Source of the DNA: an uncultured virus (IMG/VR IMGVR_UViG_3300049982_000266)
Lineage: Duplodnaviria > Heunggongvirae > Uroviricota > Caudoviricetes
IMG/VR virus record: IMGVR_UViG_3300049982_000266
DNA length: 20,000 nt
Direction: 5' to 3' (one strand)
Below, piece by piece: positions 1-20,000 of the stretch. A program made the position numbers and the translations under genes. The stretch's first letter is position 1. Each line of letters begins with the position of its first letter. The notes beneath the pieces are model-generated. The model was not told the DNA's origin, ran no database searches, and saw only the letters and a program-made list of their open reading frames with translations.

Positions 1-1855
1 CCTCGGGCCGGTACAGGACGAAGACCTCGTCGCCGTCCACGATCTCCGGCTCGACCGGAGGGGCCAGGCTCGTGTTCGCCGGAAGCACCGGCGCCTCCTC
101 GTCCTCGGGCACGTAGACGTCGACCGGCGGCAGGGCGGCCGGGGGCGGGGGCTCGATCGCGCCGGTCGACGGGACGACGATCGGCCCGCCCTCGTGCACC
201 GGCGCCTCGTCCTCGTGCAGACCCGCCACGACGGGCGCTGCGGCCAGGGCGGGGGCCGGAGCCCCGACCGGGGCGATCGCGGGCTGAGCGACCTGCCGAG
301 GGGCCGGAGCGGGCGCGCTGTAGGACTCGGCCCGCACGGTGGTCGGGCTCTCCTGCTGCTGACGCTCGGCCTCCTCCTCGGCGGCGTTCTCGACGGCCTG
401 CTTCGTGCCGACGTACGCGCCGACGCCCGAGGTCACCGCGCCCATCGCGGCCCGCTTCGCGGAGTCGACGGCGCCCCGCGCCTTGTCGCCGAGCGCGCTG
501 GCCGCATCGCCGAACGGGTCGGGGTTGCGCACCATGCGGGTGAGCCTCCGGAACGGCCGGAGCACGGTGAACATGACGACGCTGAAGAGCGCGACGAGCA
601 TGAGCGCCAGCCACGTCGGCAGTCCGCTGGCAGGGTCGAGCAAGATCCCGATGCTGAGCACGGTGAAGGCGGCGCCGACACCGAAGGCAACGCAGTTGAC
701 GATGGCCGCGCCGACGGTGTTGCCGACGCCCCGGACCACGCCCGGCATGAGGATGCCCATGACGAGCAGCAGCGGCGCGAACATCACCGCGAGCCGGACG
801 ATGAGGAAGGCGCCGATGATGAGCAGCGCCGACACGAGCACGAACGGGGCGGCGCAGAGCATCGCGAAGAGCGAGACGAGCACGGCCCCCATCCGGCTCT
901 CCGAGCGCTTGCCGGTGAAGTAGGCGTAGGCGTCCGGATCGGACTCCTGGATCTCGGCGGCGGCCTGCTCCCAGCGCTCCTGCTTCGCCTCGATCACGGC
1001 GGCGCGTTCTTCGGCGGGCAGCGCCGCCTCGGCCCACGTGAGCGCCTGCGAGTCGAAGATCACCGGCCCGTACTGCTCGGCCGTCGCGCCGTTGCTCTTG
1101 CCGAAGGTCCCGGTGAGCCACTGCTGGTAGAGCACGGCGTCGTGCAGGCTGCCAGCGGCGGCGTCCGCCGGGTCGTCGCTGTCCTGCCCGGCGACCCCGT
1201 TGAGCCCGGCGTTGACGGCCCCGAGCGCCGTGGTGACGGTGTCGTCGGCGACGTGCCCGGCAGCCACCGGGTAGCGGAAGAGCACCGTCGCCAGCACCAT
1301 CACGAAGACGGCCCAGCCGACGGCTCCGGCGGTGCTCGCCAGGTTGCCCCGGCGCGCCTTCCAGATGAGCCCGAAGCCGAGCGCGGCCAGGGCCAGTCCG
1401 AGGAAGGACTCGAAGACGGTCTCGCGCAGCGTCGAGGTGACGTGCTCCAGCAGCCCGTCGAAGGCGCCGAGGAAGGTCGGCTCGAAGGCGACGTCGGTCA
1501 GGGCGTTCGTCAGGGCGACGCCCGCCTTCGGGATCTCCAGCAGCCAGTTCGAGATCGCGGTGCCGACGGTCGCCTCGGGGTTGCGCGCGGCGTCCGGGCC
1601 GCAGCCGAGGTCGTAGGTGGTGAAGCGCAGACCGGCGTAGCCGTACTGCTCATAGATCGACGTCGTCGGCTTCTCGGCGAACGGGTCGCCGGGCTCGGGC
1701 ACCTCGGGGTCGGAGGTGAAGTACCCGGCCAGCCCCCGGCCGGGGGTGTCCGGCGTCGGCGCATCCTTGCAGTCGAAGGGGGCGGCCGACGCCGGAGCGG
1801 CGAGCAGGACGAGAGCGGTCAGAGCGAGCCCCAGCAGGGCGAGCAGCCGCCTCAC
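1..1855 (-). CDS. VirB6/TcpH-like polytopic membrane protein of a conjugative T4SS (3' end beyond the window)
   Basis: Absent from the ORF track because it has no stop in the window. Manual translation from GTG at 1855 (GTGA overlap with the VirB4 stop) is open to position 1: signal-like N-terminus VRRLLALLGLALTALVLLAPASAA, then YGYAGLRFTTYDLGCGP, several hydrophobic segments, a soluble loop (YQQWLTGTFG), a second TM cluster and a Pro/Ala/Glu-rich tail. Lies directly after VirB4. Confidence 0.75.
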   Translation of the reverse strand, partial: MRRLLALLGLALTALVLLAAPASAAPFDCKDAPTPDTPGRGLAGYFTSDPEVPEPGDPFAEKPTTSIYEQYGYAGLRFTTYDLGCGPDAARNPEATVGTAISNWLLEIPKAGVALTNALTDVAFEPTFLGAFDGLLEHVTSTLRETVFESFLGLALAALGFGLIWKARRGNLASTAGAVGWAVFVMVLATVLFRYPVAAGHVADDTVTTALGAVNAGLNGVAGQDSDDPADAAAGSLHDAVLYQQWLTGTFGKSNGATAEQYGPVIFDSQALTWAEAALPAEERAAVIEAKQERWEQAAAEIQESDPDAYAYFTGKRSESRMGAVLVSLFAMLCAAPFVLVSALLIIGAFLIVRLAVMFAPLLLVMGILMPGVVRGVGNTVGAAIVNCVAFGVGAAFTVLSIGILLDPASGLPTWLALMLVALFSVVMFTVLRPFRRLTRMVRNPDPFGDAASALGDKARGAVDSAKRAAMGAVTSGVGAYVGTKQAVENAAEEEAERQQQESPTTVRAESYSAPAPAPRQVAQPAIAPVGAPAPALAAAPVVAGLHEDEAPVHEGGPIVVPSTGAIEPPPPAALPPVDVYVPEDEEAPVLPANTSLAPPVEPEIVDGDEVFVLYRPE

Positions 1856-4374
1856 GCGGTCAGCGCCAGGTCGGCGTCGCGGGCCGTCCAGGTGGGCGTG
1901 GCGGTGCTGTCCAGGGCGGCCAGCAGCGCCGGGTTCCACGTCAGGTCGACACGCATCTTCTCGACGTTGCCGTCCACGTCGCGCATGACGAACTCGCGCG
2001 AGCCCGAGCGGGCCGTCGAGCGGCGGTCCTGCGGGCTGAGCCCGGCCAGGGTCGCCTCGTAGCCGACGCCCTCGGGGACGCGCAGCAGCCGGAGCGCCTG
2101 GCGGGCGTGGTCCTCGTCCTGCGTGCGGCCGACGAAGGCCGTGCTGACGAAGTTCGCGACGTCGAGCCCGAGCAGGTCGCTCGCGTTCTGCGACGTCGGC
2201 ATGACGCAGGCGTTCCACTTGCGGCTGTCGCGAGCGAGCCGGGTGAACAGCGCGCGGCCCGACCCCCAGTCGCCGAGGAAGTGCGCCTCGTCGAGCCCGA
2301 CCATCTTCCGCTCGCTCATCGCGCGGCCGTAGATGGCCGTCGAGGTGAGGTAGGCGGCCAGGTGCAGCAGCGGGACGGCCAGCGCCTCGCCGGTGCTCCA
2401 GGACTCGCGAGGCACGCCGCGCGGAGGCAGCACGAGCCCCGGCATGGTGAGCACCGTGAGCACGGCGTCCGACGACCGGTCGAGCGAGTAGCCCGAGCCG
2501 TAGAAGAGCCGGGCCAGCGGCATGTCGGCCATGTCGCGCAGGTAGTTGGCGATGACCTTGCCGTGCGGGCTGTCGTGGCCGTCCAGGTTGCGGATCACGG
2601 TCTGGATCGAGCCGGTGCTGAAGCCGCCGGTGACGCGCACGGCGTCAGCGATCACGAGCCGGGTCTCCGGCATCGCGTCGACCTGCGGCGGCAGGAGCAT
2701 CCGCAGGACGTCGGTCACGAGCCCCTTGCGCTCGGCCATCGCCTCGGCCTTCGCCGTCAGCCACAGCGTCTCGTCGGCGAACGCCTCCCGGCGCGGCTCG
2801 GGCACGACGCTGTACGGGTTGAGGGTGCCGGACTCGGCGTGCAGCAGGTCGACGTGCCGCGAGACGCCCTGCAACTCCGGCAGGGTCGTGAGCCGGGCCA
2901 GCGGGCCGGACGGGTCGAGCAGCGTCGTGGTGTTGCCGCGCATCGCGTTCACATAGGCGAGCGCGCCCATGAGCACCGACTTGCCCGCGCCGAGTCCGCC
3001 GACGATCGGCGTCACGCCCGAGGTCTCGCGGACCTCCGTGGCGAAGTGCGGGTCGAACATCACGGCCCGGCGGCTCGTGCCGCAGGTGTAGCCGAGGTAG
3101 GAGCCGCGCCGGTCGCCGAGGCTAGCCGACACGGTCGGCATGGCGGCGGCGAAGGCGAGCACCGGCAGGCGGCGGCGGTGCGCGGTGCTGCTCAGCGGCT
3201 CGCCGGGGATGAACTCGCGGAGCAAGCCCTCCTGCCCCTTCGGGTGCTCGACGGCCATGCGCAGCGGCTTGTAGAGGTCGACGACCTGGCGGGCGCGGTC
3301 CAGGCACTCGTCCTCGGTCGCTCCGGACACCGCGAGGCGGTGCCAGCCGTAGGCGCGGGTCGAGATGACCTCGTGGCCCTCGGTCATCTCGTCGTCGACC
3401 TGGCGGGCGCGGGCGGTCTTGCGCCCGAGGTCGAGCGGGACGTCGATCCCGTGCTCGGCGTAGTGCTTCTCCATGTCGCGGCCGACGAGCAGGCGGCGGC
3501 CGACGGCGGCCTTCGCGTCCTCCCCGGAGAGCATGTCGACGCGGCTGCTCCACTCGACGGTGAAGGGCAGCCGGTCGGCGTGGCTCATCCACGGGTCGAA
3601 CGCCGGGTGCGGCGCCACGACCTCGTCGGTGCGGCCGATGGTCAGCACGGCGACGTAGCGGGTGACCTGCTTCCCGGCACGCTCGGCGGTGACCTTGACG
3701 CAGCGTCCGAGCGGCGCAGTCTCGTAGGTGACGCCGTCGGTGAAGGCGTGCAGGTCGCCGGGCTCCCACTCGCCGTTCTCGACGGGGCTCAGCGACGACG
3801 GCGCTGGCAGCCCGAGCGCGACGCTGCGGTGCAGCAGGAACTCGACGTCGCGGGCGGTTGCGGGCGCGCCCTCGATCCCCGGTCCGGCGACGACCTTCGC
3901 GATGCTCTTGACCTGCTCGGCGATCTTCTCGCGCTCGCTCTTCGTAGGCTTGCGGCTCAGCATCTCCAGCACGGCGGCGGTCCACGGCCGGTCGCCGATC
4001 TCGACGCCGAGCAGCACTTCCTTCTCGGCGAGCGTCGTGGTCTGGAGGTGCCGCTGCACGGCGACGAGGTGGTCGCTCCACGGGCTCCCGGCGGCCTTGC
4101 CGCCGACGGGCTCGGGGGTGTTGCGGTCCAGTCCCTCGGCCCACACGCGGACCGGGTAGGGACGGCTGGTCACGCGCCAGTGCAGCCGGTGGCCGGTGAG
4201 CCCGGCCAGGGTCGTGCCTGCGCCCATGAGCAGGGCGGTGCGCTGCTTCTCGGAGCGGAACGCCCAGTGCTGCGGCGGCAGGACGAACCACGCGACGACG
4301 CGGTCACGGGTGATCGTGAGGTTGCCTGCGATCTCGCGCAGGGCGAGCGGACTCTTCGTGGTCTCGGTCTTCAA
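1852..4374 (-). CDS. virB4: VirB4-like conjugative ATPase (TcpF/ConE, AAA_10 type), about 840 aa
   Basis: Walker A GGLGAGKS, LLDPSG motif, Walker B VGLDEAH, RDSRKWN and SQN motifs, C-terminal FVMRDVDGNV. Likely start is TTG at 4374 (TTGA overlap, CAGGAG RBS), not the ORF-track start at 4548. Confidence 0.9.
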   Translation of the reverse strand: MKTETTKSPLALREIAGNLTITRDRVVAWFVLPPQHWAFRSEKQRTALLMGAGTTLAGLTGHRLHWRVTSRPYPVRVWAEGLDRNTPEPVGGKAAGSPWSDHLVAVQRHLQTTTLAEKEVLLGVEIGDRPWTAAVLEMLSRKPTKSEREKIAEQVKSIAKVVAGPGIEGAPATARDVEFLLHRSVALGLPAPSSLSPVENGEWEPGDLHAFTDGVTYETAPLGRCVKVTAERAGKQVTRYVAVLTIGRTDEVVAPHPAFDPWMSHADRLPFTVEWSSRVDMLSGEDAKAAVGRRLLVGRDMEKHYAEHGIDVPLDLGRKTARARQVDDEMTEGHEVISTRAYGWHRLAVSGATEDECLDRARQVVDLYKPLRMAVEHPKGQEGLLREFIPGEPLSSTAHRRRLPVLAFAAAMPTVSASLGDRRGSYLGYTCGTSRRAVMFDPHFATEVRETSGVTPIVGGLGAGKSVLMGALAYVNAMRGNTTTLLDPSGPLARLTTLPELQGVSRHVDLLHAESGTLNPYSVVPEPRREAFADETLWLTAKAEAMAERKGLVTDVLRMLLPPQVDAMPETRLVIADAVRVTGGFSTGSIQTVIRNLDGHDSPHGKVIANYLRDMADMPLARLFYGSGYSLDRSSDAVLTVLTMPGLVLPPRGVPRESWSTGEALAVPLLHLAAYLTSTAIYGRAMSERKMVGLDEAHFLGDWGSGRALFTRLARDSRKWNACVMPTSQNASDLLGLDVANFVSTAFVGRTQDEDHARQALRLLRVPEGVGYEATLAGLSPQDRRSTARSGSREFVMRDVDGNVEKMRVDLTWNPALLAALDSTATPTWTARDADLALTA

Positions 4375-4724
4375 GGGGTCTCCTGGATGCGCACGCGGCT
4401 GGTGGTGACGCGGTGCGCAGTCGGCTTCGCGGGGCGGCTGGCGCGGACCTCGGCGCGCACGGTCTGGAGCAGGCTCCGGACGGTGCGGTCGCTGTCGACG
4501 TAGCCCATGACGGCGTAGGTGACGAGGGTCGCGATGACGGCCTCCCACACCGGGACTCCGACGCCGAGCACGGGCACGATCGCCTTGACGGCCAGGATGC
4601 CGAGGAAAACGGCGATCCAGACCCCGTAGGCGACGTAGCGCGCGTGCCAGGGCAGCGGGGCTCCGGCGGGCCCGAGCCAGATGGCCCGGATGCGGAAGAC
4701 GTCGTCGTCGGTACGAAGCCTCAC
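4371..4724 (-). CDS. VirB3/TcpE/PrgI-like two-TM protein, 117 aa
   Basis: GTG at 4724 overlaps the upstream stop. Two hydrophobic segments (YVAYGVWIAVFLGILAV, VPVWEAVIATLVTYAVMG). Immediately precedes VirB4. Call rests on size, topology and position. Confidence 0.65.
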   Translation of the reverse strand: MRLRTDDDVFRIRAIWLGPAGAPLPWHARYVAYGVWIAVFLGILAVKAIVPVLGVGVPVWEAVIATLVTYAVMGYVDSDRTVRSLLQTVRAEVRASRPAKPTAHRVTTSRVRIQETP

Positions 4725-4969
4725 TGGATGATGATGCCGGTCAACTCGTCGGCGAACGAGTAGAGGATCGGCCCGGCGGCGATGACGACGAGCCCGATGA
4801 GCACGAGCGTCATGGTCGAGGCGGCGTCGGACACGCGGCCCTTGCGGCTGCTCGCGATGATGCCGATGCCGATGACGAGGCACAGGATCGGGACGATGAG
4901 GCGGACGCCCGCCTCGACGATCCCGTCGGTGTTCAGCGTCGCGGCGAGGGTGATGCTCTCGTGGATCAC
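4721..4969 (-). CDS. Small two-TM VirB2/TcpD-like pilin-type protein, 82 aa
   Basis: GTG at 4969 with upstream CAGGAAGCAGGA. Two TM helices (LIVPILCLVIGIGIIAS, MTLVLIGLVVIAAGPIL) flank a short basic loop. First gene of the T4SS cluster. Confidence 0.6.
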   Translation of the reverse strand: MIHESITLAATLNTDGIVEAGVRLIVPILCLVIGIGIIASSRKGRVSDAASTMTLVLIGLVVIAAGPILYSFADELTGIIIQ

Positions 4970-4974
4970 GGGTC

Positions 4975-5036
4975 CTGCTTCCTGTAGTGGGAACGCCCGG
5001 CTCGCTCGGCCGGGTCGTGGATCTACGCTAACACAG
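4975..5036 (-). promoter_or_regulatory. Putative promoter and structured leader of the conjugation operon
   Basis: Extended -10 TGT-TAGCGT (hexamer 5025-5030), hairpin CCCGGC-CGAGCGA-GCCGGG (4996-5014), then CCCACTACAGGAAGCAGG before the GTG. Confidence 0.55.
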
Positions 5037-5058
5037 CGCACAGTGCGCTGCGCAGTTC

Positions 5059-5613
5059 TCAGACCGGCGCGTCGCAGGGGATCGAGCGGCCGTCATTCGT
5101 GAGCAGCCGCCAGCCCCAGTGCGTACGCACCGGCACGGCGGTCGCGTCCACCGTGGGGCCGTTGCGCCGGATGACGAAGCCGTCGCGCTCAGCGGCCTCG
5201 CGGTCGTCGTCGAGCGCCTTGTGGCATCCGCTCGCGTTGCCCATGCCGCAGACGAGCACGAGCCACGCCGGGCCGTTCGTGCGGTCTGCCTCGGCCTTGC
5301 TCCGGCCGCCCATGCCCCGGCCCTCGCGGTGCTGGAGGTTCGTGCCCGGCCAGCCGCAGCGCTGGCACAGACCCATGTCGCGCAGCCACACGAGGTTGCG
5401 CGTCGCGGTCGAGGGGCCGGTGTCCCGGAGTGCCTGCTGCCGGGGCTGTGCGGCCCGCTGCGGCGCTGCTGCGCGGGCCGGGGGCGCCGACCGCCGGACC
5501 GGCTCCTGGCGGGCCTGGAGCGGCTTGCCGCGCTCCAGGGGCTTCGTCGTCTTCAGCGGCTTGTCGCCCTGCGCCAGCGGCGTCTTCCGGGCAGGCGGTC
5601 CGGAGCGCTTCAC
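5059..5613 (-). CDS. Phage HNH-type nuclease with basic N-terminus
   Basis: RDMGLCQRCG...LQHREGRGMGG...N...LVLVCGMGNASGCH resembles the actinophage HNH/zinc-binding pattern. GTGA overlap with the upstream gene. Confidence 0.65.
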   Translation of the reverse strand: MKRSGPPARKTPLAQGDKPLKTTKPLERGKPLQARQEPVRRSAPPARAAAPQRAAQPRQQALRDTGPSTATRNLVWLRDMGLCQRCGWPGTNLQHREGRGMGGRSKAEADRTNGPAWLVLVCGMGNASGCHKALDDDREAAERDGFVIRRNGPTVDATAVPVRTHWGWRLLTNDGRSIPCDAPV

Positions 5614-6023
5614 CGGCGCGGCTTGTCGACCTGCGGCCGAGCCGGAGGCACACGCGGCAGCGCCTTCGCCGTGCCCGCCACGAGCGCGGCGACGTTGCGC
5701 GGGGTCCGCCCCTCGGCGACCTTCATGCGGCCCTCGCGCAGTGCCCGCCGGTAGGCGGCCTCGTCGTCGGGGTCAGCGTCCGGGATCGCCTCGGGCGAGG
5801 CGTCGAGCCGGTCGCGTCGCATCCGCTTCACCTCGGCGATGATCTCGGCGGGAGCGACGAAGGGCGCACGCTTCGCGACGGCGACGACGGCCTGGCGCGC
5901 GTCGTCGAAGGTCACGTCCTCCAGCACGAGCGTCCAGGCGTCGGGGGTGAACTCGTCGATCTTCTGCGCGGGCATGATCTGCGACACGAGCGCGAGCAGG
6001 GCGGTGGTCTCGGAGAGGTTCAC
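5610..6023 (-). CDS. Phage replication accessory protein (G39P-like helicase loader/inhibitor), 137 aa
   Basis: Likely GTG start at 6023, 1 nt after the initiator stop. Pattern LLALVS...DAWTLVLEDVTFDDARQAV...PFVAPAEII is typical of the gene that follows phage initiators. Confidence 0.6.
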   Translation of the reverse strand: MNLSETTALLALVSQIMPAQKIDEFTPDAWTLVLEDVTFDDARQAVVAVAKRAPFVAPAEIIAEVKRMRRDRLDASPEAIPDADPDDEAAYRRALREGRMKVAEGRTPRNVAALVAGTAKALPRVPPARPQVDKPRR

Positions 6024-6024
6024 G

Positions 6025-6930
6025 TCAGCCCTCCAGGGCGGGGGTCGTCGGGACGGGCTCCCACGGCGCCCGGCGACCGCCAGTGGCAGCGGCGTCCATC
6101 GCGCGCTCCAGGACCCCGTGAGTCTGTGCCATGCCCTGCGCGCCGCGCTGCTGGCGGTCGGCGCGGTTCTGCACGTCACGCCGGACCCAGTTCCGCCAGG
6201 TCGCGGCCCAGTCGACCTTCACGCCGCGCTGGCCAGGCGCGGAGCGCCAGTGGTCGCAGAAGACCTCGTGGATCTTCGCGGCGTCCTCGGCGGTGAGCCC
6301 CTGCGCCAGCGTCCAGGCGACGAGGTCGGGCTCCAGGACGAAGGGCTCCGGGAGGCGGGTGCCCTTGCGCTTCGGCGTCGGCGCAGGCTCGGCTTCGAGC
6401 GAGGGGGTCCCCTGCGAAGCAGGGGGGGTGTCTTCTGCGTAGTGCTTCTGAGGAGTGACTACAGCGGCAGGGTCCCCGACCGTCGGCTCCCCGACTGCCG
6501 GGTCCCCGACCGACGGGAAGCCGTCACCCTGCACCCGCCGCCTATCCGGGCGGTCCTCGACGGCCTGCGCCCCCTTCAGCCGGGCTGCCTCGGCCGCCCA
6601 CTCGGCGACAGGCTCGACCGAGATCTCGACGTCGGTGAACCACCGGGGGCCGCGCTCCGTGCGCACGCTGTAGCGCACCCGGCGGTAGTAGCCGTGCGCG
6701 ATCAACTCCTGGATGCCGGAGCGGATCGCCTCGCGGCCTTCCTTGCCGCCGCGCTCGACGGCCTCGGCGCGGACCTTCCAGCCGTCCGGCTTCGCCAGCA
6801 GCGAGCACAGGATGCCGCGCGCCTTGTAGGACAGCCGCTCGTCTTCGAGCAGCGCGTTCGGGATCGCCTCGTAGCCCGAACGCGGACGGCGCTTCCGCAG
6901 CCGCGAGCCCTCGTCGGCGGGGGAGGTCAT
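6025..6930 (-). CDS. Phage replication initiator / replisome organiser (N-terminal winged HTH)
   Basis: IPNALLEDERLSYKARGILCSLLAKPDGW...GREAIRSGIQELIAHGY HTH region, central repeat linker, C-terminal GTRLP...FCDHW...KVDWAATWRNWVRR domain. Confidence 0.8.
   Translation of the reverse strand: MTSPADEGSRLRKRRPRSGYEAIPNALLEDERLSYKARGILCSLLAKPDGWKVRAEAVERGGKEGREAIRSGIQELIAHGYYRRVRYSVRTERGPRWFTDVEISVEPVAEWAAEAARLKGAQAVEDRPDRRRVQGDGFPSVGDPAVGEPTVGDPAAVVTPQKHYAEDTPPASQGTPSLEAEPAPTPKRKGTRLPEPFVLEPDLVAWTLAQGLTAEDAAKIHEVFCDHWRSAPGQRGVKVDWAATWRNWVRRDVQNRADRQQRGAQGMAQTHGVLERAMDAAATGGRRAPWEPVPTTPALEG
6470..6510. repeat. Three iteron-like direct repeats GG(G/C)TCCCCGAC with 15-bp period
   Basis: Copies at 6470-6480, 6485-6495 and 6500-6510, inside the initiator gene. 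Confidence 0.7.
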
Positions 6931-7265
6931 CGGTCGCCCTTCCGCGCGTTGCAGGACTCGCGCGCGAGCACGCAGTTCGCGAGCACGTCCGGTCCGCCCT
7001 TCGAGGTCGGGACCACGTGGTCGACGGTGACGGTGCGGTAGATCAACCGGACGCCGCAGTAGCGGCAGTCCCAGCCGTCACGCGCGACGACGTGCGTGGC
7101 CCGGCGCATCGCCAGGGACAGGCAGCCGGGGCCGGTCCACACGGTGCTCGGGCGGCTCCGCTTCCAGCGGAGGTCGGGGTCAGCCTGGAGGGCTGCCACG
7201 AGTTCGAGGAGACGGATCTCCCTCGTGTCGCACGCTGCTGCGCGCTCGATCGTCTGTACGCTCAC
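6927..7265 (-). CDS. HNH endonuclease (McrA-like), about 112 aa
   Basis: RDGWDCRYCG...TVDHVVPTSKGG...NCVLARESCNARKG. Likely GTG start at 7265 with GGAGAG RBS; the ORF track starts at 7328. Confidence 0.85.
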   Translation of the reverse strand: MSVQTIERAAACDTREIRLLELVAALQADPDLRWKRSRPSTVWTGPGCLSLAMRRATHVVARDGWDCRYCGVRLIYRTVTVDHVVPTSKGGPDVLANCVLARESCNARKGDR

Positions 7266-7364
7266 GCTGAAGTGCTCTCCGTTCGGTGCTGCGGACGGGT
7301 GGTGCGAGGCGGCGGCTCGGGATCCCACTCCCGGCCGCCGTCGGCCTTGCTCGGGTCGGTGACG

Positions 7365-7757
7365 TTAGCCCACGTCGAGGGTCAGACCGGCCAGCCACTC
7401 GCGCATCGGCGCGTCGGGCAGGAACCACTCGCCGACGACGTGCCGGTCGGCGAAGCCCTCGTGCAGCGCGTGCTCGCTGTCGCCGGGGATGAGCCCGACG
7501 AGCAGGATCGGCTCGCGGCAGTCCATGTCGGCAGGCGTGATGATGTAGCACTGCCGGTTGATCGCCCGCAGTTCCTTCAGCCGGGTCAGCGGGTGCTTCG
7601 AGAGCCCGATCTTGACCCAGCCCTGGCGCTGCATGACGTAGGTCTGTGCGTCAGGGTGCTGGCCGAAGGCGGTGCTCTTCGCCCCGCCGCAGACGCGGCA
7701 GCGCTTCAGGCGCCACGCCGACGCGGGCGGCTCGAAGAGCGTCAGCGGCTCGCTCAC
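7365..7757 (-). CDS. GIY-YIG family protein (T5orf172/Mug113-like), 130 aa
   Basis: TYVMQRQGWVKIGLSKHPLTRLKEL...EHALHEGF...VGEWF. GTGA overlap start at 7757. N-terminal CRVC. Confidence 0.8.
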   Translation of the reverse strand: MSEPLTLFEPPASAWRLKRCRVCGGAKSTAFGQHPDAQTYVMQRQGWVKIGLSKHPLTRLKELRAINRQCYIITPADMDCREPILLVGLIPGDSEHALHEGFADRHVVGEWFLPDAPMREWLAGLTLDVG

Positions 7758-8176
7758 CGCTCGCGGTGCCAGCGCAGGAGGAAGTCGCGCGCGCCGTCGA
7801 TCACGGCGACGTTCTCCGGCGTCGGCAGGCTGACCCGCTGGCGGGCCTGCGCGTGCGCGAAGGTCACGTTGCCGTCGGACTCCAGCAGCATCCGCCAGCG
7901 CTCGCCGCTGAAGCGCGGGTGCGCGCTCGCCTCGGCCAGCCACTTCGCGGTCTGCTCGGCGTCGCTGAGCGCCTGCACGTCCGACGCTTCGGCGTCTACG
8001 TCGAGCACCCCGCTGGCGGCGTCCAGCGGGCTCACACCGGCCCGCAGAAGCGGCCGGAGGTAGTCGGCGACCGCGCGCACCCTGGCGGGCGCGTACGGCC
8101 ACTTCTGCTCGTCGGCGGGCAGCGGCTCGGGCTGTGGCCCGGCGGGCAGGTCGGGGAAGAGCGGGACGTCGGTCAC
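7754..8176 (-). CDS. Hypothetical phage protein, 140 aa
   Basis: GTGA overlaps at both ends; typical high-GC codon pattern (VTDVPLFPDL...RWHRER). Confidence 0.65.
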   Translation of the reverse strand: MTDVPLFPDLPAGPQPEPLPADEQKWPYAPARVRAVADYLRPLLRAGVSPLDAASGVLDVDAEASDVQALSDAEQTAKWLAEASAHPRFSGERWRMLLESDGNVTFAHAQARQRVSLPTPENVAVIDGARDFLLRWHRER

Positions 8177-8391
8177 GATCCGTCCAGGGGGACGAACTCG
8201 GCGACGATGACCGTCGTCGTGAGGCGGTGCTCCAACAGAGGGTGCCACTTCGAGGCGGGCTCCTCGGCGGCGAAAGATCGCGCCTTCGCCTCGTCGGTGA
8301 AGCGCTTGCGGCGCTGCTCGACGTCCGGCGGGAACCACGCGACCACCCACTCCTCGACGGTGGTCGAGCCCTCGTCCGGCAGGGCCGTCAC
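8173..8391 (-). CDS. Hypothetical phage protein, 72 aa
   Basis: GTGA overlaps at both ends (VTALPDEG...FVPLDGS). Confidence 0.6.
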   Translation of the reverse strand: MTALPDEGSTTVEEWVVAWFPPDVEQRRKRFTDEAKARSFAAEEPASKWHPLLEHRLTTTVIVAEFVPLDGS

Positions 8392-8675
8392 GGCTCGACC
8401 ATCTCGTCCTCGGGGGCGCGGACCGGGAGCCCGCGCTGGAGGGCGACGGCGACCCGCTCGGCGCGACCGAGCCCGCCCCACACGCCCTCGGGTTCGTCGT
8501 TCGCCAGGGCGTACTCCAGGCAGGCGTCCCGGATCGGGCAGGGGGCGCCGTCGTCGGGGCCGTTGCACACGCGCTTCGCGCGCATGATGACCTGCTTCCC
8601 GCCCTGCTCGGGGTAGAAGATCTCGGGGTCGGTGGAGGCGCAGACGGCGCTTCCCCAGTCGGGCGTGTCGATCAT
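8388..8675 (-). CDS. whiB: WhiB family Fe-S transcriptional regulator, 95 aa
   Basis: W...C.STDPEIFYP...AKRVC...CPIRDACLEYAL...GVWGG...ER: four Cys plus the GVWGG turn. ATGA overlap start at 8675, within ORF 8388..9716. Confidence 0.95.
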   Translation of the reverse strand: MIDTPDWGSAVCASTDPEIFYPEQGGKQVIMRAKRVCNGPDDGAPCPIRDACLEYALANDEPEGVWGGLGRAERVAVALQRGLPVRAPEDEMVEP

Positions 8676-10048: not shown

Positions 10049-10074
10049 TGGACTCGCTTCCTGTGGGGATGGCG

Positions 10075-10119
10075 CCGGTCGCTCACCGGCGAGAGGGACA
10101 GTAGCCGGGGGGTCCGACA
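10075..10119 (-). promoter_or_regulatory. PafBC/RecA-NDp-type promoter plus conserved leader hairpin
   Basis: TGTCGG(10119-10114)-N10-TACTGT(10103-10098), followed by CCGGTGAGCGACCGG (10089-10075). Confidence 0.75.
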
Positions 10120-11867: not shown

Positions 11868-11894
11868 CTCGTGCTCCTGGTCTGTCGGTGTGGG

Positions 11895-11928
11895 CCGGTC
11901 GCTCACCGGTTGAGAGAACCATAGCACA
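11895..11928 (-). promoter_or_regulatory. Extended -10 promoter plus conserved leader hairpin for the helicase
   Basis: TGC-TATGGT (hexamer 11918-11923), then CCGGTGAGCGACCGG (11909-11895). Confidence 0.65.
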
Positions 11929-12051: not shown

Positions 12052-13647
12052 CTACCTCGGGAGGGCGTCCCCGAGCATGGCGCGCACGTCAGCGACGACG
12101 CTCGTGCCGAGCATGTCGTACGCCTGCGCCGCGCCGGTCTTGCCGCTCCCGCCGAGCCGGTCGACGGCGCTCTTGCGGTACTGCGCGACGAAGCGCAGTG
12201 CCTCCTCGGCCGTCCAGTCCTTCACTTCGCGCTTCAGGTGCGCGCGCTGACGCTGCGTCATCTTCGAGACCGTCGTGCCGTGGATCGTCGCCAGGACGTC
12301 GATCTCGTCGAGCAGCCACGTCCGGCCCTGCTCCGGGTCGACGGGCGGCGGACCGGCCGGGTCGTCGGCGGGCACGAGCGGGCTGGAGTTGACCGGGTCG
12401 TCGGAGCGGGGCTCCTCCGGGGCGCTCTCCGGCTCGCTGGCGGGCTCGGGGACCACCTCGGCCTCGACGGTGCCGTCCTCGTGCTCCGCGCCGGGAGCGG
12501 CCTCCTGAGCGGCCTCGACGGGCTGCTCGGCGGCGGGCGCCTCAGGTGCGGCCGGAGCCTGCTCCTCGGTGAACGGCTGCCCGCTCTGGACGGCGCCAGC
12601 GGCGGCGCGCAGGAAGGCGTCGAGGTTGGTCTCCTCGCCCTTCAGCCCGCGCACCGGCGTGATGACGCGGCGCTCCGGCGGGCCGGTCTCCTCCCACGCC
12701 GCAAGGATGACCTGGCGACGGGCGGCGGGGTCGGCGCTCTCAGTGAAGGCGGCGAGCACGATCTTGCGGATCTGCTCGGCCTTCGCCGGGAGGAACGGCT
12801 GCGGGGGCTCCGGCGCGGCGGCGGGCTGCGACAGGGTCTCGACGACCTCGCCGTCGATCACGGAGCCGTCCTCGTCGACCAGCGCGCCCAACTCCTCGGC
12901 GGTGTAGTGCGCACCGGCCAGCACCTCCTCAGCGCCTTCACGGACGACTTCCGAGATCGCGCGGGCCTTCGCCATCGCCTCCGGGTAGGTCTCCCAGTTG
13001 CCGGGCTTGTCGTTGCGGGTGCGGGCGCGCACGGTCCACTTGCCGTCGGAGCCCTGCTGGTAGGAGTCGACGAGCCCGGCGCGCACAGCGCGGTCGATCG
13101 TCCAGGTCGCCTCGAAGGTCCAGTCGGGGTCGTCGCTGCGGATGAGGTACGCGGTCGCCTTCAGGTCGCCGCCCTCGACCGAGCCCTCGACCTTCATGCG
13201 CATCTTGTGGCCCGCCCGGCGCACGAGCGCCGACATGAGCGCGGCCGACGCCGTCGGCTTGCCGTCGATCACGTGGATGCCGGTGATCGCGGCCATCGGC
13301 GCGATGCCCAGCATGAGCCCGTACTCGACGGCGTAGAGCACGTTCGCCGGGGCGCCCCGGTACTGCGACGGGAGCAGGTTCGCGTTCGCCAGTTCGCGGG
13401 CGTAGCGGATGCGGGCGTTGAGGCTGAGGTTCGGGCTCGACATGGTCGGCATGAGGGCGCTGCCGGGCGTCACCTCGTCGGCCTTCGGCTCGAAGCCCGC
13501 GTTCGCAGTGCGACCGCCGGTCGAGATCGTGCCGTCGGAGATGGTGCTGCCGATGATCTGGCCCTCGGCGATGCGGTCGGTGGGCGTGCCGTTCGCAGGG
13601 TGGTCAGCGCCGGGTGCGGGCGCCTGGTCGGTCGGGACGTCGGTCAC
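12052..13647 (-). CDS. RecT/Redbeta-like single-strand annealing protein with long C-terminal extension
   Basis: LLPSQYRGAPANVLYAVEYG..LGIAPMAAITGIHVIDGKP...WTIDRAVRAGL...WETYPEAMAKARA...YTAEELG...IDGEVVE resembles actinophage RecT-like proteins. Clustered with an exonuclease and a helicase. Confidence 0.8.
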   Translation of the reverse strand: MTDVPTDQAPAPGADHPANGTPTDRIAEGQIIGSTISDGTISTGGRTANAGFEPKADEVTPGSALMPTMSSPNLSLNARIRYARELANANLLPSQYRGAPANVLYAVEYGLMLGIAPMAAITGIHVIDGKPTASAALMSALVRRAGHKMRMKVEGSVEGGDLKATAYLIRSDDPDWTFEATWTIDRAVRAGLVDSYQQGSDGKWTVRARTRNDKPGNWETYPEAMAKARAISEVVREGAEEVLAGAHYTAEELGALVDEDGSVIDGEVVETLSQPAAAPEPPQPFLPAKAEQIRKIVLAAFTESADPAARRQVILAAWEETGPPERRVITPVRGLKGEETNLDAFLRAAAGAVQSGQPFTEEQAPAAPEAPAAEQPVEAAQEAAPGAEHEDGTVEAEVVPEPASEPESAPEEPRSDDPVNSSPLVPADDPAGPPPVDPEQGRTWLLDEIDVLATIHGTTVSKMTQRQRAHLKREVKDWTAEEALRFVAQYRKSAVDRLGGSGKTGAAQAYDMLGTSVVADVRAMLGDALPR

Positions 13648-13670
13648 TGCTGCTCGCTTCCTATGGGGTG

Positions 13671-13719
13671 CCGGTCGCTCACCGGCTGAGGTGGATCACG
13701 CTACGCGCGGGGTCTGACA
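13671..13719 (-). promoter_or_regulatory. PafBC/RecA-NDp-type promoter plus conserved leader hairpin
   Basis: TGTCAG(13719-13714)-N10-TAGCGT(13703-13698), followed by CCGGTGAGCGACCGG (13685-13671). Confidence 0.75.
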
Positions 13720-13726: not shown

Positions 13727-14032
13727 TCAGCGGCTACACCGCCCCTCGTGCCCAGCGGGCTTGCGCGGGCCAGGCTCGCCCTCGGGGTCGCCGAGCCCGC
13801 AGGTGGTGCACAGGGCGCGCTCACGGGCGCTGTGGGCCAGCATCTCGACGACGATGCGCCAGGTCGCGTCGGACGCCTTGCGCGTCCCGGCCGCCTGCTC
13901 GACGACCTTGCGCTCGGTCCGGCCGAAGTGGGCCACGGCCACGACGGTGTCGCCGCGCTCGCGCAGCACGTGCGCGAGACGGCCCGCCTTGACGCGGCGG
14001 CTCTCGGCCGCGCGCTCCTCCCATGACTCCAC
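13727..14032 (-). CDS. Hypothetical protein, about 101 aa, with C-terminal CxxC...H...C
   Basis: Lies within ORF 13727..14068. Probable leaderless GTG at 14032, 6 nt after TACGGT (14039-14044). Confidence 0.6.
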   Translation of the reverse strand: MESWEERAAESRRVKAGRLAHVLRERGDTVVAVAHFGRTERKVVEQAAGTRKASDATWRIVVEMLAHSARERALCTTCGLGDPEGEPGPRKPAGHEGRCSR

Positions 14033-14092
14033 GGCGACACCGTACACCCGCTTCGCCTCACAGTGCACAGCGCGGTACGCGCGTGTCGCAGA

Positions 14093-14128
14093 CGACGGCC
14101 CCGCGAGCCGAAGCGCGCGGGGCCGTCG
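14093..14128 (-). terminator. Strong hairpin after the secreted-protein gene
   Basis: 13-bp perfect stem CGACGGCCCCGCG / CGCGGGGCCGTCG with a 10-nt loop. Confidence 0.6.
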
Positions 14129-14140
14129 GGACGAGCGGGT

Positions 14141-15670: not shown

Positions 15671-15725
15671 ACGGATCTCTCTCCTGTGCGGGGGTTGGAG
15701 GAGAACCGTAAGGCTCGATCATGGC

Positions 15726-15895: not shown

Positions 15896-15942
15896 GAAGA
15901 GCGTAGCGCGTTGTGCGCAGCGCGCTACCTCGCAGGGGGCGC

Positions 15943-16554
15943 CTAGGGCAGCAGGTCGTCGACCAGCGGGACGTCGACCGAGCCGATCGGCTCACCGGTG
16001 AGCGGGTTGACGATCACGACGGTCGGTCGCTCGGGCACCGGGGCCGGGGCGGGCGCCGGACCGGACGGCGGCGGGGCCGAGCCGCCACCCGAGCCGCCTG
16101 TGGCGGGCGCTGAGCCCGTGGAGCCGGTGCCACTACCCGAGCCGCCCGAAGAGCCCGCAGCGGCGCCAGGAGCAGGCGTACCGGCGGCGTCCGGCATGAG
16201 GGCTGACGGCACGATTGGCGCCGCCTCGCCGGGCACCTGCACCCCGGCGTCGCGGAGCGCCTGCTCCAGCGTGAAGATCCGCCGCCCCTGCTCCTCGACG
16301 ACGGTCAGCAGGCGCCGGTTGTCCTTCGCCTGGCCGCGAGCGACGTCGAGCGCATCGTCCAGCGCGTCGCCGTTGCGGAGCGCCTGGACGAGCACGAGCG
16401 CGATGAGCACGCCGAGCACCGTGGCGATCGCGAGCAGCGCGAGTCGCTGAAGCCGCGTCAGCCCCGTGCGCACGGTGACGCTCTGCTGCACCGGCGCGGC
16501 CGGAGAGACCTTCGCGGCGGCGGTCAGCAGCCGCTCACGCTCACTGGCACGCAC
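15943..16554 (-). CDS. Single-TM membrane protein with coiled coil and Gly/Ser/Pro-rich tail (lysis-region protein)
   Basis: GGAGGT RBS, TM segment LALLAIATVLGVLIALVLV, helical region, low-complexity tail. Confidence 0.7.
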   Translation of the reverse strand: MRASERERLLTAAAKVSPAAPVQQSVTVRTGLTRLQRLALLAIATVLGVLIALVLVQALRNGDALDDALDVARGQAKDNRRLLTVVEEQGRRIFTLEQALRDAGVQVPGEAAPIVPSALMPDAAGTPAPGAAAGSSGGSGSGTGSTGSAPATGGSGGGSAPPPSGPAPAPAPVPERPTVVIVNPLTGEPIGSVDVPLVDDLLP

Positions 16555-16642
16555 TGAGACCTCCGATGATGACGGACCACGAGGCGGCCCATGCGGTCAC
16601 GCGCGGGTAGGAGGTCAGCAGGTACACCGCCACCCCCGTCAC
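16541..16642 (-). CDS. Possible 33-aa hydrophobic peptide
   Basis: GTGA overlap with the upstream stop. MTGVAVYLLTSYPRVTAWAASWSVIIGGLSACQ fills the intergenic gap. Confidence 0.3.
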   Translation of the reverse strand: MTGVAVYLLTSYPRVTAWAASWSVIIGGLSACQ

Positions 16643-16941
16643 TTCGACCCCTTCTTCTCGTCGGCGCCGAAGACGAGCGGGGCGCCGGTCAGGGCGATGC
16701 CGAGACCGACGGCGGCGGGCTCGACCTTCGCCGAGATGAAGACCTCGTTGACGATGATCGCCATGCCTGCGATGAAGAGCAGCACGTCGCGCAGGGTCGC
16801 GAAGCCCGTCGGCAGCGGCGTGCGGGTCCGCACCGGCTCGGGCGCCAGAGCAGGAGCCGGGGCGGGGGCCACCGGCTCGGGCGGGGGTGTCGGCACGCTC
16901 ACCACGCGCCGCCGCCGACGCGGAGGAACGGGCGCGGTCAT
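16639..16941 (-). CDS. Holin-like two-TM membrane protein, 100 aa
   Basis: Two TM segments (VLLFIAGMAIIV, AAVGLGIALTGAPLVF), charged C-terminus DEKKGSK, located downstream of tail genes. Confidence 0.5.
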   Translation of the reverse strand: MTAPVPPRRRRRVVSVPTPPPEPVAPAPAPALAPEPVRTRTPLPTGFATLRDVLLFIAGMAIIVNEVFISAKVEPAAVGLGIALTGAPLVFGADEKKGSK

Positions 16942-16950
16942 GCCCCGAGG

Positions 16951-17630: not shown

Positions 17631-17649
17631 GACCCGGAGCGTACAGCGG

Positions 17650-20000
17650 CTACGCGGCCCGGCCGGGAGGCACGCGGCTCTCCAGCGTCTCGATCCGAGC
17701 GAAGGCGTCCTGAAGCGCGGCGACCGAGGTCGACAGGAGCGCGTACAGGTCGATCCCGAGCGAGCCGTCGGAGTCGATCGTGGTGACGATGACGTCGGCG
17801 ATGTCGGCGGGCAGGGCAGCGCGGGCTTCCTGCGCCACGACGCCTCGCCCCCGACGCAGGTTCGTGACGTCCCGCGCCTTGACGTTGCGCGTGGCCCGCA
17901 GCGAAGTGGAGCCCTCGACGTCGGCCTCGCCAGGGCTGTCGGCGAGGCCGGGCGTGACCTGCTTCAGTTCGTAGTCCCGGACCCGCAGAGCCTTGATCGC
18001 GGTGACGGCCGACGAGGTCTCGGTGTCCTGCACGCCGCTCTTCATCCGCTCGTCCGAGCCGGTGATGTGCGCCGATGCGACCGAGCGGATGTAGGCGCCA
18101 CCCGCCCAGTTGATGATCTGCATGTTGTCCCACGTGCCGTCCCAGTTGTAGCGGATGGCACCGCCTCGACCACCGGCGGGCGGGGTCATGAGGCGCAGCA
18201 GAGTGCTGAAGGCGTTGTTGGCCGAGCCGACCAACTCCACGTAGTCGCCGCCGGTCATGAGGGTGTGGGCGCTGCTCGTGACGCGGTTGTACCACGAGAC
18301 CGAGGACGTCATCTGCACGGTGCCGCTCTGCGTGATCGCGATGGCGGTGTTGTTGCCGCGCGCGTACATGACGACGTCGTTCGAGTTGATGATGACCGAG
18401 GCGCCGTAGGTGTCGCGCACGTTGAGGCTGATGCCGTCCGGGCGGATGTTGACCTTCGACGGGCCGGGGCTTCCGACGGACGAGAAGGTGTCGCCGGAGT
18501 AGGCGCCGCTGAAGAGGTCGAGGGTGCTGCTGCCGATGCCGCCGACCGTCGTGTAGGTCGCGTGGATGCTGGCGGGCTGGTGCGTCAGCGAGTTCGTGTG
18601 CAGGGTCATGCCCGCGTGCCCGGTCGGCGGGCTCTTCCACAGGGTGATGCCGATGCCGCTGGTCGGCGTGGTGCGCGTCGAGACGTCGGACGCCTGCACG
18701 ATGCCTGCGAAGCGCGCGCTGCCGGTGTTGGAGATGAAGACGGTCTCGACGCTGCCGCTGTAGGCGTGCAGCCCGGTCGCGTTGAGTTCCACGCGCGAGC
18801 CGGTGTCGGCGGTCTTGATGCGGGCGCCGATGAGAACGTCGGCGTCGAGCGTCCCGGCGGTCAACTTCCCGACGTTGAGGCTGCCGATCTTCGCGTCCTG
18901 GATCGTCGCGTCGGCGATCTTCGCGTTGAGGATCGTCGCGTCCTCGATCTTCGCGTTCGTGATGGCGCCGTCGAGGATCTTCGCGCTGGAGATGGCCGCG
19001 TCAATGATCTTCGCGCTGCCGATCGCGGCGTCGGCGATGATGCCGCTCGCGGCGGTGATCGTGCCCGTGACCATCTCGACCGACGAGATGCTGGCGGCCT
19101 TGATCTCGCGCGCGGTGACGGCGTCGGTGGCGATGGTCCCGGCCGTGACCGCGTCGACCGCGATCTTCCCGGCGATGATGGCGTCTGTCGCGATCTCGGC
19201 GGCCGTGATGGCTCCGGCCAGGATCTTCGGCGTCGTGATCGCGTCGTCGGCGATCTTCGTCTCGGTGACAGCACCCGCAGCGATCTTCGCCTCGGTCGCC
19301 GCACCGGCGGCCAACTTCGCCGTCTGCACCGCGCCGTCGGCGATCTTCTCCACAGTGACCGCGAGGTCGGCGATGCGGTCCGCCGAGACGGCGCCGAGCG
19401 CGATCTTCGCGGTGTCGATCGCGCCGTTGACGATCTTCTCGTTCGAGATGATCTCGTCCACGAGATCCTGCGAGACGACCCGCTCGGGCTGAGCGGACAC
19501 CTCTGCGCTCGGGTCGCTGCGGTTGCCGGTTCGGTCGACGGCCACGAAGCGCACGTAGGTCAGTGCGTCGTAGTTCCGGTCGACGATCGGGCTCGTGCCG
19601 GGGTTCGTGAGCGCGTCGTAGAGCGTCGCCGCCGAGGGCTCGAAGCCGCCGACGTCCGACACGTGCACCTCGACATGCCGGAGGTCGGCCGACATCGGCG
19701 CCGTCGTGCCGTTGCCGACGTCGGCGAGCCCGTCCCACACTGCGCGGATGACGCCGAGCGACGGCGTCAGCGTCGGCGCGGTCGGCTTCAGGGGAGGCGT
19801 CGTGTCCTCGACGACCTGCACGATCGGGCTCAGCGTGTAGCCGCTGGTGTTGCCCGAGGAGTCCTGCGTGCGCACCCGCGCCTGGAAGTAGGAGCCCGGC
19901 TCGACCTCCTCGACGTAGGCGGACTCGGTCCGCGCCACGACCTCCAGCGTCCACGGGGAGACCGGCGCTCGCCCGTCCAGCCCGCCCAGCGAGCGCCAGG
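17650..20000 (-). CDS. Phage tail fibre / minor tail protein with FN3-like domains, decapeptide repeat shaft and C-terminal Peptidase_S74-like intramolecular chaperone (5' end beyond the window)
   Basis: Frame is open to the right edge. FN3-like motifs (YFQARVRTQDSSGNTS, YVRFVAVDRTGNRSDPS), many AI/VTxxKIAxG repeats, and SDERMK...GVVAQE...IDLYALL...ALQD..ARIETLE. Confidence 0.85.
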   Translation of the reverse strand, partial: WRSLGGLDGRAPVSPWTLEVVARTESAYVEEVEPGSYFQARVRTQDSSGNTSGYTLSPIVQVVEDTTPPLKPTAPTLTPSLGVIRAVWDGLADVGNGTTAPMSADLRHVEVHVSDVGGFEPSAATLYDALTNPGTSPIVDRNYDALTYVRFVAVDRTGNRSDPSAEVSAQPERVVSQDLVDEIISNEKIVNGAIDTAKIALGAVSADRIADLAVTVEKIADGAVQTAKLAAGAATEAKIAAGAVTETKIADDAITTPKILAGAITAAEIATDAIIAGKIAVDAVTAGTIATDAVTAREIKAASISSVEMVTGTITAASGIIADAAIGSAKIIDAAISSAKILDGAITNAKIEDATILNAKIADATIQDAKIGSLNVGKLTAGTLDADVLIGARIKTADTGSRVELNATGLHAYSGSVETVFISNTGSARFAGIVQASDVSTRTTPTSGIGITLWKSPPTGHAGMTLHTNSLTHQPASIHATYTTVGGIGSSTLDLFSGAYSGDTFSSVGSPGPSKVNIRPDGISLNVRDTYGASVIINSNDVVMYARGNNTAIAITQSGTVQMTSSVSWYNRVTSSAHTLMTGGDYVELVGSANNAFSTLLRLMTPPAGGRGGAIRYNWDGTWDNMQIINWAGGAYIRSVASAHITGSDERMKSGVQDTETSSAVTAIKALRVRDYELKQVTPGLADSPGEADVEGSTSLRATRNVKARDVTNLRRGRGVVAQEARAALPADIADVIVTTIDSDGSLGIDLYALLSTSVAALQDAFARIETLESRVPPGRAA
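18870..19450 (-). repeat. Degenerate 30-bp coding repeats (10-aa period, xKIAxGAVTx)
   Basis: Recurrent + strand (c/g)gatcttcgc units in 30-bp register; boundaries approximate. Confidence 0.8.

Follow-up and report, generated by a model that had tools for sequence, protein, structure and literature searches.

The DNA analyzed here is a stretch of 20,000 nucleotides from an uncultured tailed virus (IMG/VR record IMGVR_UViG_3300049982_000266), and by the window we mean this whole stretch. Its base composition is 68-75% G+C and, according to a third-position GC frame analysis, every real gene lies on the minus strand, which gives a reading order from position 20000 down to position 1. Read in this direction, the genes of a tailed phage run directly into four genes that resemble part of a VirB4-type conjugative secretion system. 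A first-pass annotation, made from the letters alone, had seen here a candidate conjugative phage or phage-plasmid, pointing to the common orientation of the two modules and to a gap of only 89 bp between them. Both observations hold, the gap being exactly 4970-5058 (89 bp), between the stop codon of the last phage-type gene, encoding the second of two HNH endonucleases (HNH2; stop at 5059-5061), and the GTG start codon (4969-4967) of the first secretion gene, memA. What is more, the gap contains a copy of a composite leader module that also precedes three phage genes, encoding a RecT-like protein, a helicase and a nuclease, and this leader resemblance is the strongest evidence in the present analysis. 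The features at the junction, in reading order, and the three other leader copies are the following.

5059-5613, minus strand: HNH endonuclease 2, final phage-type gene before the junction (phrog_740, 4.4e-25)
5028-5055, minus strand: terminator-like hairpin directly after the HNH2 stop codon, from an RNA fold of 4967-5058
4988-5030, minus strand: memA leader, with a -10-like TAGCGT at 5025-5030 and the hairpin CCCGGC-CGAGCGA-GCCGGG at 4996-5014
4721-4969, minus strand: memA, 82 aa, first gene of the secretion operon, two predicted transmembrane segments, GTG start at 4969-4967
4371-4724, minus strand: memB, 117 aa, in a VirB3-like position, two transmembrane segments, GTGA overlap onto memA
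1852-4374, minus strand: VirB4/TcpF-family ATPase, 840 aa (PF12846, AAA_10, 4.6e-27; NCBIfam NF052333, TcpF, 6.2e-29), TTGA overlap onto memB
2-1855, minus strand: VirB6-like polytopic membrane protein, 3' end open, signal peptide and five transmembrane segments, GTGA overlap onto the VirB4-like gene
13661-13694, minus strand: leader hairpin upstream of RecT, preceded by a -10-like TAGCGT (model R2, 27.4 bits, E 0.0015)
11885-11918, minus strand: leader hairpin upstream of the helicase (R2, 19.7 bits, E 0.1; R1, 28 bits)
10065-10098, minus strand: nuclease leader hairpin, with a terminator-like stem of 13 bp ahead of it (R2, 27.3 bits, E 0.0016)

The four secretion genes overlap one another by GTGA, TTGA and GTGA and, judging from this pattern, they form a translationally coupled operon. 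The first-pass annotation had called this operon pilin-VirB3-VirB4-VirB6. The latter two names are borne out by family matches. Namely, the ATPase also gives weaker matches to VirB4 and TraC models and has both its Walker A motif (GGLGAGKS, residue 459) and its Walker B motif (residue 694) intact, and the VirB6-like protein matches the CD3337/EF1877 mobilome membrane family (NF046089) at 1.3e-9, below the curated cut-off. A sequence search of the PDB with the ATPase returned no match. On the other hand, the names pilin and VirB3 reflect size, topology and position only, because memA and memB match no family in scans of Pfam, PHROGs and NCBIfam. What can be said is that memA is 52% identical to the first gene of a related cassette in a viral contig (locus L031), that memB shares 27-50% identity with the gene preceding VirB4 in 9 other cassettes, and that the VirB6-like protein shares 31-43% identity with the gene following VirB4 in such cassettes.

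The two modules are physically continuous. The stretch is present in one soil-metagenome run, which is possibly its source; two further runs (X2 and X3) hold next to none of it and are uninformative about its distribution. In the Logan assembly of the soil run, four contigs lie over the window at depths of 20.7, 19.4, 18.9 and 18.8. One of them, 5,629 bp long at a depth of 19.4, covers 2893-8521 with 0 differences and bridges the junction, reaching 2,077 bases beyond it in one direction and 3,463 in the other. Both sides have a depth of 19-21x. Another contig reaches 1,430 bp past position 1, and the first 40 bases of the window had no match in viral, genome or metagenome contig collections. 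Could the window nonetheless be an assembly chimera of a phage and a conjugative element? Its origin in a soil metagenome, the short repeats common to high-GC actinobacterial DNA, and the breaks between Logan contigs elsewhere in the window (2893-2920, 8492-8521 and 10304-10346) all make one think of this. However, none of these breaks is at the junction, a second assembler spans it without mismatch at a depth equal to that of its neighbours, and exact protein look-ups place the VirB4-like ATPase, memB, the nuclease, RecT, WhiB, the initiator and a 509-aa secreted protein all on one 127,106-bp JGI/IMG contig. Since a second assembly bridges the junction and both sides share this contig, we consider a chimera to be highly improbable.

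A different question is whether two genuine elements lie side by side here, be it a phage next to an integrative and conjugative element (ICE) in tandem, a prophage carried by an ICE or a conjugative plasmid, or an ICE inside a prophage, in which case the operon would belong to the conjugative partner. We regard this as fairly unlikely, and the evidence on it is distributed over several of the results below. At the junction itself, little speaks for it. Among the 22 open reading frames of the window scanned against Pfam, PHROGs and NCBIfam, no integrase, transposase or relaxase family was matched, and no att-like repeat pair was seen at the junction within the window (a partner repeat outside the window is possible), in agreement with the first-pass annotation, which had noticed neither recombinase nor att scar. 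The co-orientation of all genes and the even depth also fit one element.

The leader bears on the same question. The pattern CCGG-N(1,2)-GAGCGA-N(0,1)-CCGG occurs four times in the window as compared with 0.01 expected matches, 0 of 200 shuffled sequences reached four, and each match, always on the coding strand, closely precedes one of the genes for RecT, the helicase, the nuclease and memA. The first-pass annotation had remarked that the leader of the secretion operon resembles those of the recombination genes, and this is precisely what these counts bear out. In particular, all four intergenic regions have the same order of parts, namely a terminator-like hairpin that follows the stop codon of the preceding gene, a -10-like box (TAnnnT), a short GC-rich hairpin with an N-GAGCGA loop, a ribosome-binding site of the form CCCA..AGGAAGC, and a GTG or ATG start. 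The memA hairpin has the stem CCCGGC/GCCGGG, as opposed to CCGGT/ACCGG in the other three leaders, with the loop unchanged, i.e. a compensatory change. Judged from sequence, this compensated stem of its own argues for maintenance of the memA leader rather than for a recent copy. Hairpins of this kind, which keep the loop but differ in the stem, are found between a -10-like box and a ribosome-binding site at 16 sites in relatives (L007, L008, L010, L022 and L023). A covariance model built from these 16 sites alone (R2) was searched against 212 kb that included plasmid and prophage controls, and it ranks the four leaders of the window first to fourth, with memA third (22.7 bits, E 0.02; 28.0 bits by R1) and the best control at 17.6 bits (E 0.33).

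How widespread is this element? A model built from all 20 sites gives 49 matches at E<=0.1 in two large phage genomes from IMG/VR (G402 and G403, 241 kb together), 43 of them on the coding strand. In 61 actinobacterial genomes, searched under stricter filters and including five flagged as unpublished (G414, G422, G431, G438 and G442), there are at most 2 matches per genome, and 26 of the 61 have any match. In the plasmid, Streptomycetaceae and Kitasatospora loci, the model has no match at E<0.1. None of the 6 other cassettes inspected has the leader before its first gene, and 97 kb of other cassette loci yielded just three weak matches, all of them elsewhere. Because the leader is abundant in G402 and G403, rare in host genomes and absent before other cassettes, we take it to be a hallmark of the phage lineage rather than of the host or of the cassette. 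For the idea of two neighbouring elements this is awkward, as the leader of the phage lineage is fused to the operon right up to its start codon. Furthermore, because the operon sits behind the same terminator, -10, leader and ribosome-binding module as RecT, the helicase and the nuclease, it is most likely expressed together with the phage early genes. The hairpin matches no Rfam family at the gathering threshold or at E<=1, and the GAGCGA-loop leader cassette, present in dozens of copies per genome in a lineage of large actinophages, is a regulatory element that had not been described before. By its form, it could be a boxB-like binding site for a phage regulator or a 5' stabiliser.

The remaining genes of the window, which lie upstream of the junction, are phage-type genes and proteins lacking family matches. 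In reading order, they are as follows.

17650-19998, minus strand: tail fibre, 5' end open, with pentapeptide-like repeats and a C-terminal S74 intramolecular-chaperone domain
16639-16941, minus strand: holin-like small membrane protein, two predicted transmembrane segments, 75% identity over 55 aa to a gene of G403
15943-16554, minus strand: single-transmembrane protein (203 aa) with a Pro/Gly/Ser-rich tail, one predicted transmembrane segment
14141-15670, minus strand: secreted 509-aa protein with an N-terminal hydrophobic segment, between the lysis-like genes and RecT
13727-14068, minus strand: 113-aa protein, 56% identity over 97 aa to G403
12052-13647, minus strand: RecT-like single-strand annealing protein (phrog_561, 1.9e-40) with a long acidic C-terminal extension
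10137-11867, minus strand: UvrD/SF1 helicase (Pfam AAA_19 and UvrD families; phrog_1967, 7.9e-87)
8672-10048, minus strand: Cas4-like PD-(D/E)XK nuclease (phrog_1674, 3.6e-6) with conserved, invariant Cys residues
8388-8675, minus strand: WhiB-like regulator (Pfam PF02467, 5.2e-18; phrog_472, 3.8e-18), ATGA overlap onto the nuclease stop codon
8173-8394, 7754-8176 and 7365-7757, minus strand: three small genes, from frame analysis
6927-7328, minus strand: HNH endonuclease 1 (PF01844, 1.2e-10)
6025-6930, minus strand: replication initiator or primosomal-type DNA-binding protein (phrog_4707, phrog_1408 and phrog_3992, 1e-12 to 1e-16)
5610-6179, start uncertain, minus strand: phage protein matched by PHROGs only (phrog_22143, 2.8e-19)

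On the phage side, the first-pass annotation had named a tail fibre with an S74-like chaperone, a holin-like gene, RecT, Cas4 and WhiB proteins and a phage initiator, and all of these were recovered. The fibre matches Pfam Peptidase_S74 (PF13884) at 6.1e-5, above the cut-off, as well as phrog_892 at 4e-26, and is 36-56% identical to the fibres of relatives. At 18856-19475 (minus strand) it carries at least 16 copies of a 15-nt repeat encoding a pentapeptide, a repeat also present in the fibres of Gordonia, Microbacterium and Curtobacterium phages. The holin-like protein has no family match in the Pfam and PHROGs scans, and its name follows from its two transmembrane segments and its counterpart in G403. 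No endolysin family was found among the window proteins by the family scans. The neighbouring single-transmembrane protein, with no match in the Pfam, PHROG and NCBIfam scans, is possibly a lysis accessory protein. Within its gene, ARAGORN calls a tRNA-Leu(CAG) at 16061-16148 (minus strand), a call that is probably spurious because Rfam finds no tRNA there even at E<=1. The secreted 509-aa protein has no sequence family match either. Its Atlas structure neighbours lie at TM 0.4-0.67, under the bar for naming, and the fold that they suggest, an alpha/alpha-toroid similar to polysaccharide lyases, is a lead only.

As for recombination and replication, RecT is 38-45% identical to actinophage RecT proteins and the helicase 45-47% identical to that of G403. 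The helicase start is placed at the ATG at 11867, because this ATG follows a ribosome-binding site. Near the helicase C-terminus, a tandem 12-nt repeat at 10304-10367 (CGGCGACCGGCT-like) encodes a PVAE repeat, and Logan contigs break here. The helicase is also similar to UvrD-type helicases encoded close to the termini of large linear plasmids of Streptomyces, where a record often has two copies; these may be TtrA-like terminal transfer helicases. A Kitasatospora plasmid (L003) was rejected as a relative of the window, having only the UvrD helicase in common with it and being an ordinary MobF plasmid. Of the small genes, 8173-8394 is 61% identical to a gene of G403, and 7365-7757 is MUG113/T5orf172-like (PF13455, 1.7e-4). 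At the level of nucleotides, megablast of the whole window against phages gave no match, and a distant blastn search gave just short matches in RecT and in the tail repeat.

To which lineage do these genes belong? Homologues of the nuclease are few, with just 12 in a set of 5.8 billion proteins (one is called Cas4 by its source), and the loci of its relatives are found in three Kitasatospora genomes (L004-L006), in metagenome contigs (L007-L013) and in three IMG/VR genomes (G402, 126,865 bp; G403, 114,594 bp; and G404). G403 has the most in common with the window: its holin is 75% identical, its 113-aa protein 56%, its helicase 45-47% and its nuclease 43%, and it also has counterparts of HNH1, HNH2, the initiator and the fibre repeats. 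A large siphovirus, G403 encodes DnaB, terminase, portal and capsid proteins together with a tape measure of 1,686 aa and a fibre of 1,772 aa, and has almost all of its genes on one strand. G402 and G403 both have a full set of terminase, portal and capsid genes, whose products are 54-57% identical between the two. G402 has in addition a 33-tRNA array at one end of its record (L044:932-4895). The terminase family of the two genomes comprises 914 proteins, many on contigs of 128-151 kb and some from isolate genomes. At 127,106 bp, the contig that carries both sides of the junction has a size typical of such integrase-less actinophages (115-127 kb).

In G403, the HNH2 homologue occupies the corresponding place, behind the initiator and a DnaC-like gene, and what follows it is not a secretion operon, but ~27 kb of small unknown genes (among them one whose protein matches small-terminase PHROGs, far from the large terminase). 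We therefore conclude that the slot occupied by the cassette is a variable one and that the cassette was gained specifically in this lineage. The relatives also speak on both sides of the question of two elements. That they lack the cassette is what one would expect if the operon belonged to a separate conjugative partner. Still, neither G402 nor G403 encodes an integrase able to drive accretion: no tyrosine integrase and no ParB match was found in G402 and G403, and no serine recombinase in G403. The lack of a ParB match, together with the fact that no partition gene was seen in the window by the family scan, leaves the phage-plasmid part of the earlier proposal unsupported.

The cassette itself is much more widely distributed. 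The VirB4-like ATPase has 1,627 homologues at E<=1e-30, the closest of which, at 55-59% identity, come mostly from Nocardioidaceae, and a Streptomyces host, initially considered because of GC content and plasmid matches, was dropped. Two Streptomyces linear plasmids (NZ_CP109057 and NZ_CP029542) carry the cassette with a VirB4 protein of 35-41% identity, followed by a small gene and an NlpC/P60 peptidase, with FtsK/SpoIIIE nearby; both are typed as non-mobilizable in PLSDB. At 1e-50, and with two candidates scored per genome, the cassette was found in 4 of 401 sampled Streptomycetaceae genomes. The Streptomyces phage records contained no VirB4 relative. Among viral contigs, a scan with the VirB4 protein by itself gave no match, and an alignment-based scan gave five IMG/VR contigs with the cassette (VirB4 identity 42-52%). 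Three of these (L033-L035) have genes for an M23 peptidase and then for FtsK/SpoIIIE as the next part of the cassette, L033 having also a DUF2637 gene; L031 has FtsK/SpoIIIE as well. In the fifth (L032), the VirB4 homologue is split by a ~1.1-kb insert and the locus is only 44% G+C; in the 1,181-aa protein (P0020), a source annotates a LAGLIDADG (intein-type) domain. No relaxase was noticed in these five loci of 14-24 kb.

Four of the viral records can be viewed in a wider context. In G405 (L036, L031 and L037-L039), an 85-kb provirus record with a single integrase, the cassette and FtsK/SpoIIIE are flanked by the early genes and by a structural module of the contractile-tail type. G407 (L054-L061 and L034) is 163 kb long and has its VirB4-VirB6-M23-FtsK cassette in an internal position. 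Its siphovirus structural module is full, there is one integrase, and it encodes a 1,678-aa DarB-like antirestriction protein and two ParB-like proteins; from its gene content, G407 is a candidate conjugative phage-plasmid. With the same cassette placed between phage early and structural modules in both, G405 and G407 are independent precedents that we count in favour of a single element. G406 and G408 have the cassette at the edge of the contig, beside the siphovirus tail/lysis end, with integrases present; this arrangement looks like a tandem and, together with the commonness of the cassette family outside phages (Streptomyces linear plasmids, Nocardioides chromosomes), speaks for two elements in the window too.

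Taking all of this together, we favour the reading that a single phage-type element of ~127 kb took up a conjugation-type cassette at the variable end of its early region and put it behind the leader module that it repeats elsewhere, and we assign to this a probability of roughly 0.58. The window would then be an internal piece of one 127-kb element from a lineage of large actinobacterial tailed phages, about 115-150 kb in size, that lack an integrase and carry nearly all genes on one strand. The cassette would have entered at the distal end of the early region, where the recombination and replication genes are. It is of the Gram-positive VirB4/TcpF plus VirB6/ConG-like kind and would stem from the pool of actinobacterial ICEs and plasmids. 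By analogy with the stem-loop cassettes of T4-like phages called PeSLs, the repeated leader modules may have served as recombination points for the capture. The cassette would be inside the packaged genome and could act as an envelope-spanning conduit for DNA or protein.

That said, a number of points weigh against this capture. The Logan contigs were maybe built from the same reads as the assembly of the window and are not fully independent of it. The covariation statistics of the leader (over 20 sites, 89% of the cells pair, compensatory changes are seen in 6 of 6 pairs, and none of 500 shuffles scores as high) are partly circular, because the sites were picked with a filter for stems of at least 4 bp. 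The closest VirB4 homologues are mostly chromosomal or on short Nocardioidaceae contigs, which fits an ICE origin. All four viral records described above (G405-G408) encode full virion modules by PHROGs (the Pfam Phage_capsid model had no match in them, though PHROGs found their capsid genes), yet this 4/4 is a matter of selection bias, because IMG/VR consists of predicted viruses. Any head genes lie outside the window, and among the best 120 of the 914 matches to the terminase profile, none is on the 127,106-bp contig. The visible secretion genes within the window are four only; a hydrolase, coupling ATPase, relaxase and oriT, if present at all, would lie beyond it. Finally, the first-pass annotation had looked to relatives of the same synteny and had reckoned with close phage relatives that never carry the secretion system; the cassette is present in 0 of the 6 phage relatives searched (27-48% nuclease identity), which goes part of the way in that direction, but these six are distant, the only close relative (87% nuclease identity) being a 3.4-kb contig. 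Note that G402-G404 were searched with PF12846 and the three Kitasatospora genomes with the VirB4-like protein of the window, to which the latter gave one weak, unlinked match.

Would the picture change if the cassette were a partial or repurposed remnant within one element, serving, for example, phage exclusion, envelope remodelling or export? This concerns the function of the cassette rather than the structure of the element, and we hold it to be quite unlikely. It would explain why just two small membrane proteins, VirB4 and VirB6 are seen, why no relaxase was noticed in the five viral cassette loci, and why both Streptomyces plasmids are typed as non-mobilizable; in addition, capsid capacity restricts phage cargo (PMC12282955). 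Against it, the Walker motifs of the ATPase are intact, the four genes retain the order and translational coupling of complete cassettes, and the remaining cassette may continue past position 1, where the Logan contig mentioned above runs on; other copies continue with a cell-wall hydrolase and an FtsK/SpoIIIE pump. If the captured cassette is a functional one, conjugative transfer of the phage genome would be possible. The boldest version of the capture scenario is that an integrase-less actinophage expresses a complete conduit (VirB4, VirB6, hydrolase and FtsK-like pump) as an early operon from its own promoter and leader, and passes its replicating genome on to adjacent cells or hyphal compartments by contact as well as in virions. 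We find this version doubtful.

What would follow from such a capture? If true, a secretion operon wired to a phage early leader would be the first sign of a regulatory fusion between the two main routes of gene transfer, and a phage moving by contact as well as by virions would be the first conjugative phage. The question it raises is whether a virus can also move by mating and in this way escape receptor-based host range and extracellular decay in soil. The GAGCGA-loop leader cassette, for its part, may explain how large actinophages take up foreign operons.

It is instructive to compare the window with known systems. In ICEBs1 and Tn916, as in the Tcp system of pCW3, small membrane proteins are followed by a VirB4-family ATPase and then by a large polytopic VirB6-like protein. 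The window has the same order, with a VirB4/TcpF protein and a CD3337/EF1877-type VirB6 protein, at low sequence identity; the difference is that hydrolase, coupling protein, VirB8-like protein and relaxase are outside its visible genes. Closer in sequence are the cassettes of actinobacterial plasmids and ICEs, with the same gene order and identities of 35-59% for VirB4, 27-52% for the small proteins and 31-43% for VirB6. These, however, are part of plasmid or chromosomal backbones, accompanied by ParA, FtsK/SpoIIIE and hydrolases of the NlpC/P60 or M23 kind, and do not have the GAGCGA leader. ICEs of the type IV secretion kind do occur in Streptomyces (PMC9513070).

In phage-ICE tandems, a tailed prophage adjoins a VirB4-type conjugative module and the two may move together, also in the actinobacterial genus Mycobacteroides. 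These pairs arise by site-specific accretion, with integrases and att sites, and are described by the authors as tandems "rather than a hybrid element" (PMC13651849). Unlike them, the window has a junction lacking recombinase and att site, a phage lineage with no integrase, and an operon under a phage leader. Another actinobacterial element that is both phage and conjugally transferable is the Streptomyces plasmid-phage pZL12/phiZL12, whose transfer, according to two papers (PMC3583192, PMC4487206), goes through a major tra gene (of the FtsK/TraB kind) and its two neighbours. The system in the window is VirB4-type and ParAB was not seen there, whereas pZL12 has an FtsK/TraB-kind tra gene and ParAB. 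With G402 and G403, the window shares the nuclease (34-43% identity), helicase, holin, HNH genes, initiator, WhiB position, fibre repeats, one-strand layout and leader, the difference being that neither of them has an AAA_10/VirB4 gene. Lastly, the PeSLs of T4-like phages are short promoter/terminator stem-loop cassettes, repeated between the genes of variable regions and proposed to mediate swapping of unrelated genes by serving as points of recombination (PMC4122927). The four copies in the window are likewise repeated, composite terminator/promoter stem-loop modules between genes, but they belong to another phage group, host and sequence, and here the conserved part is the GAGCGA-loop hairpin between the -10-like box and the ribosome-binding site.

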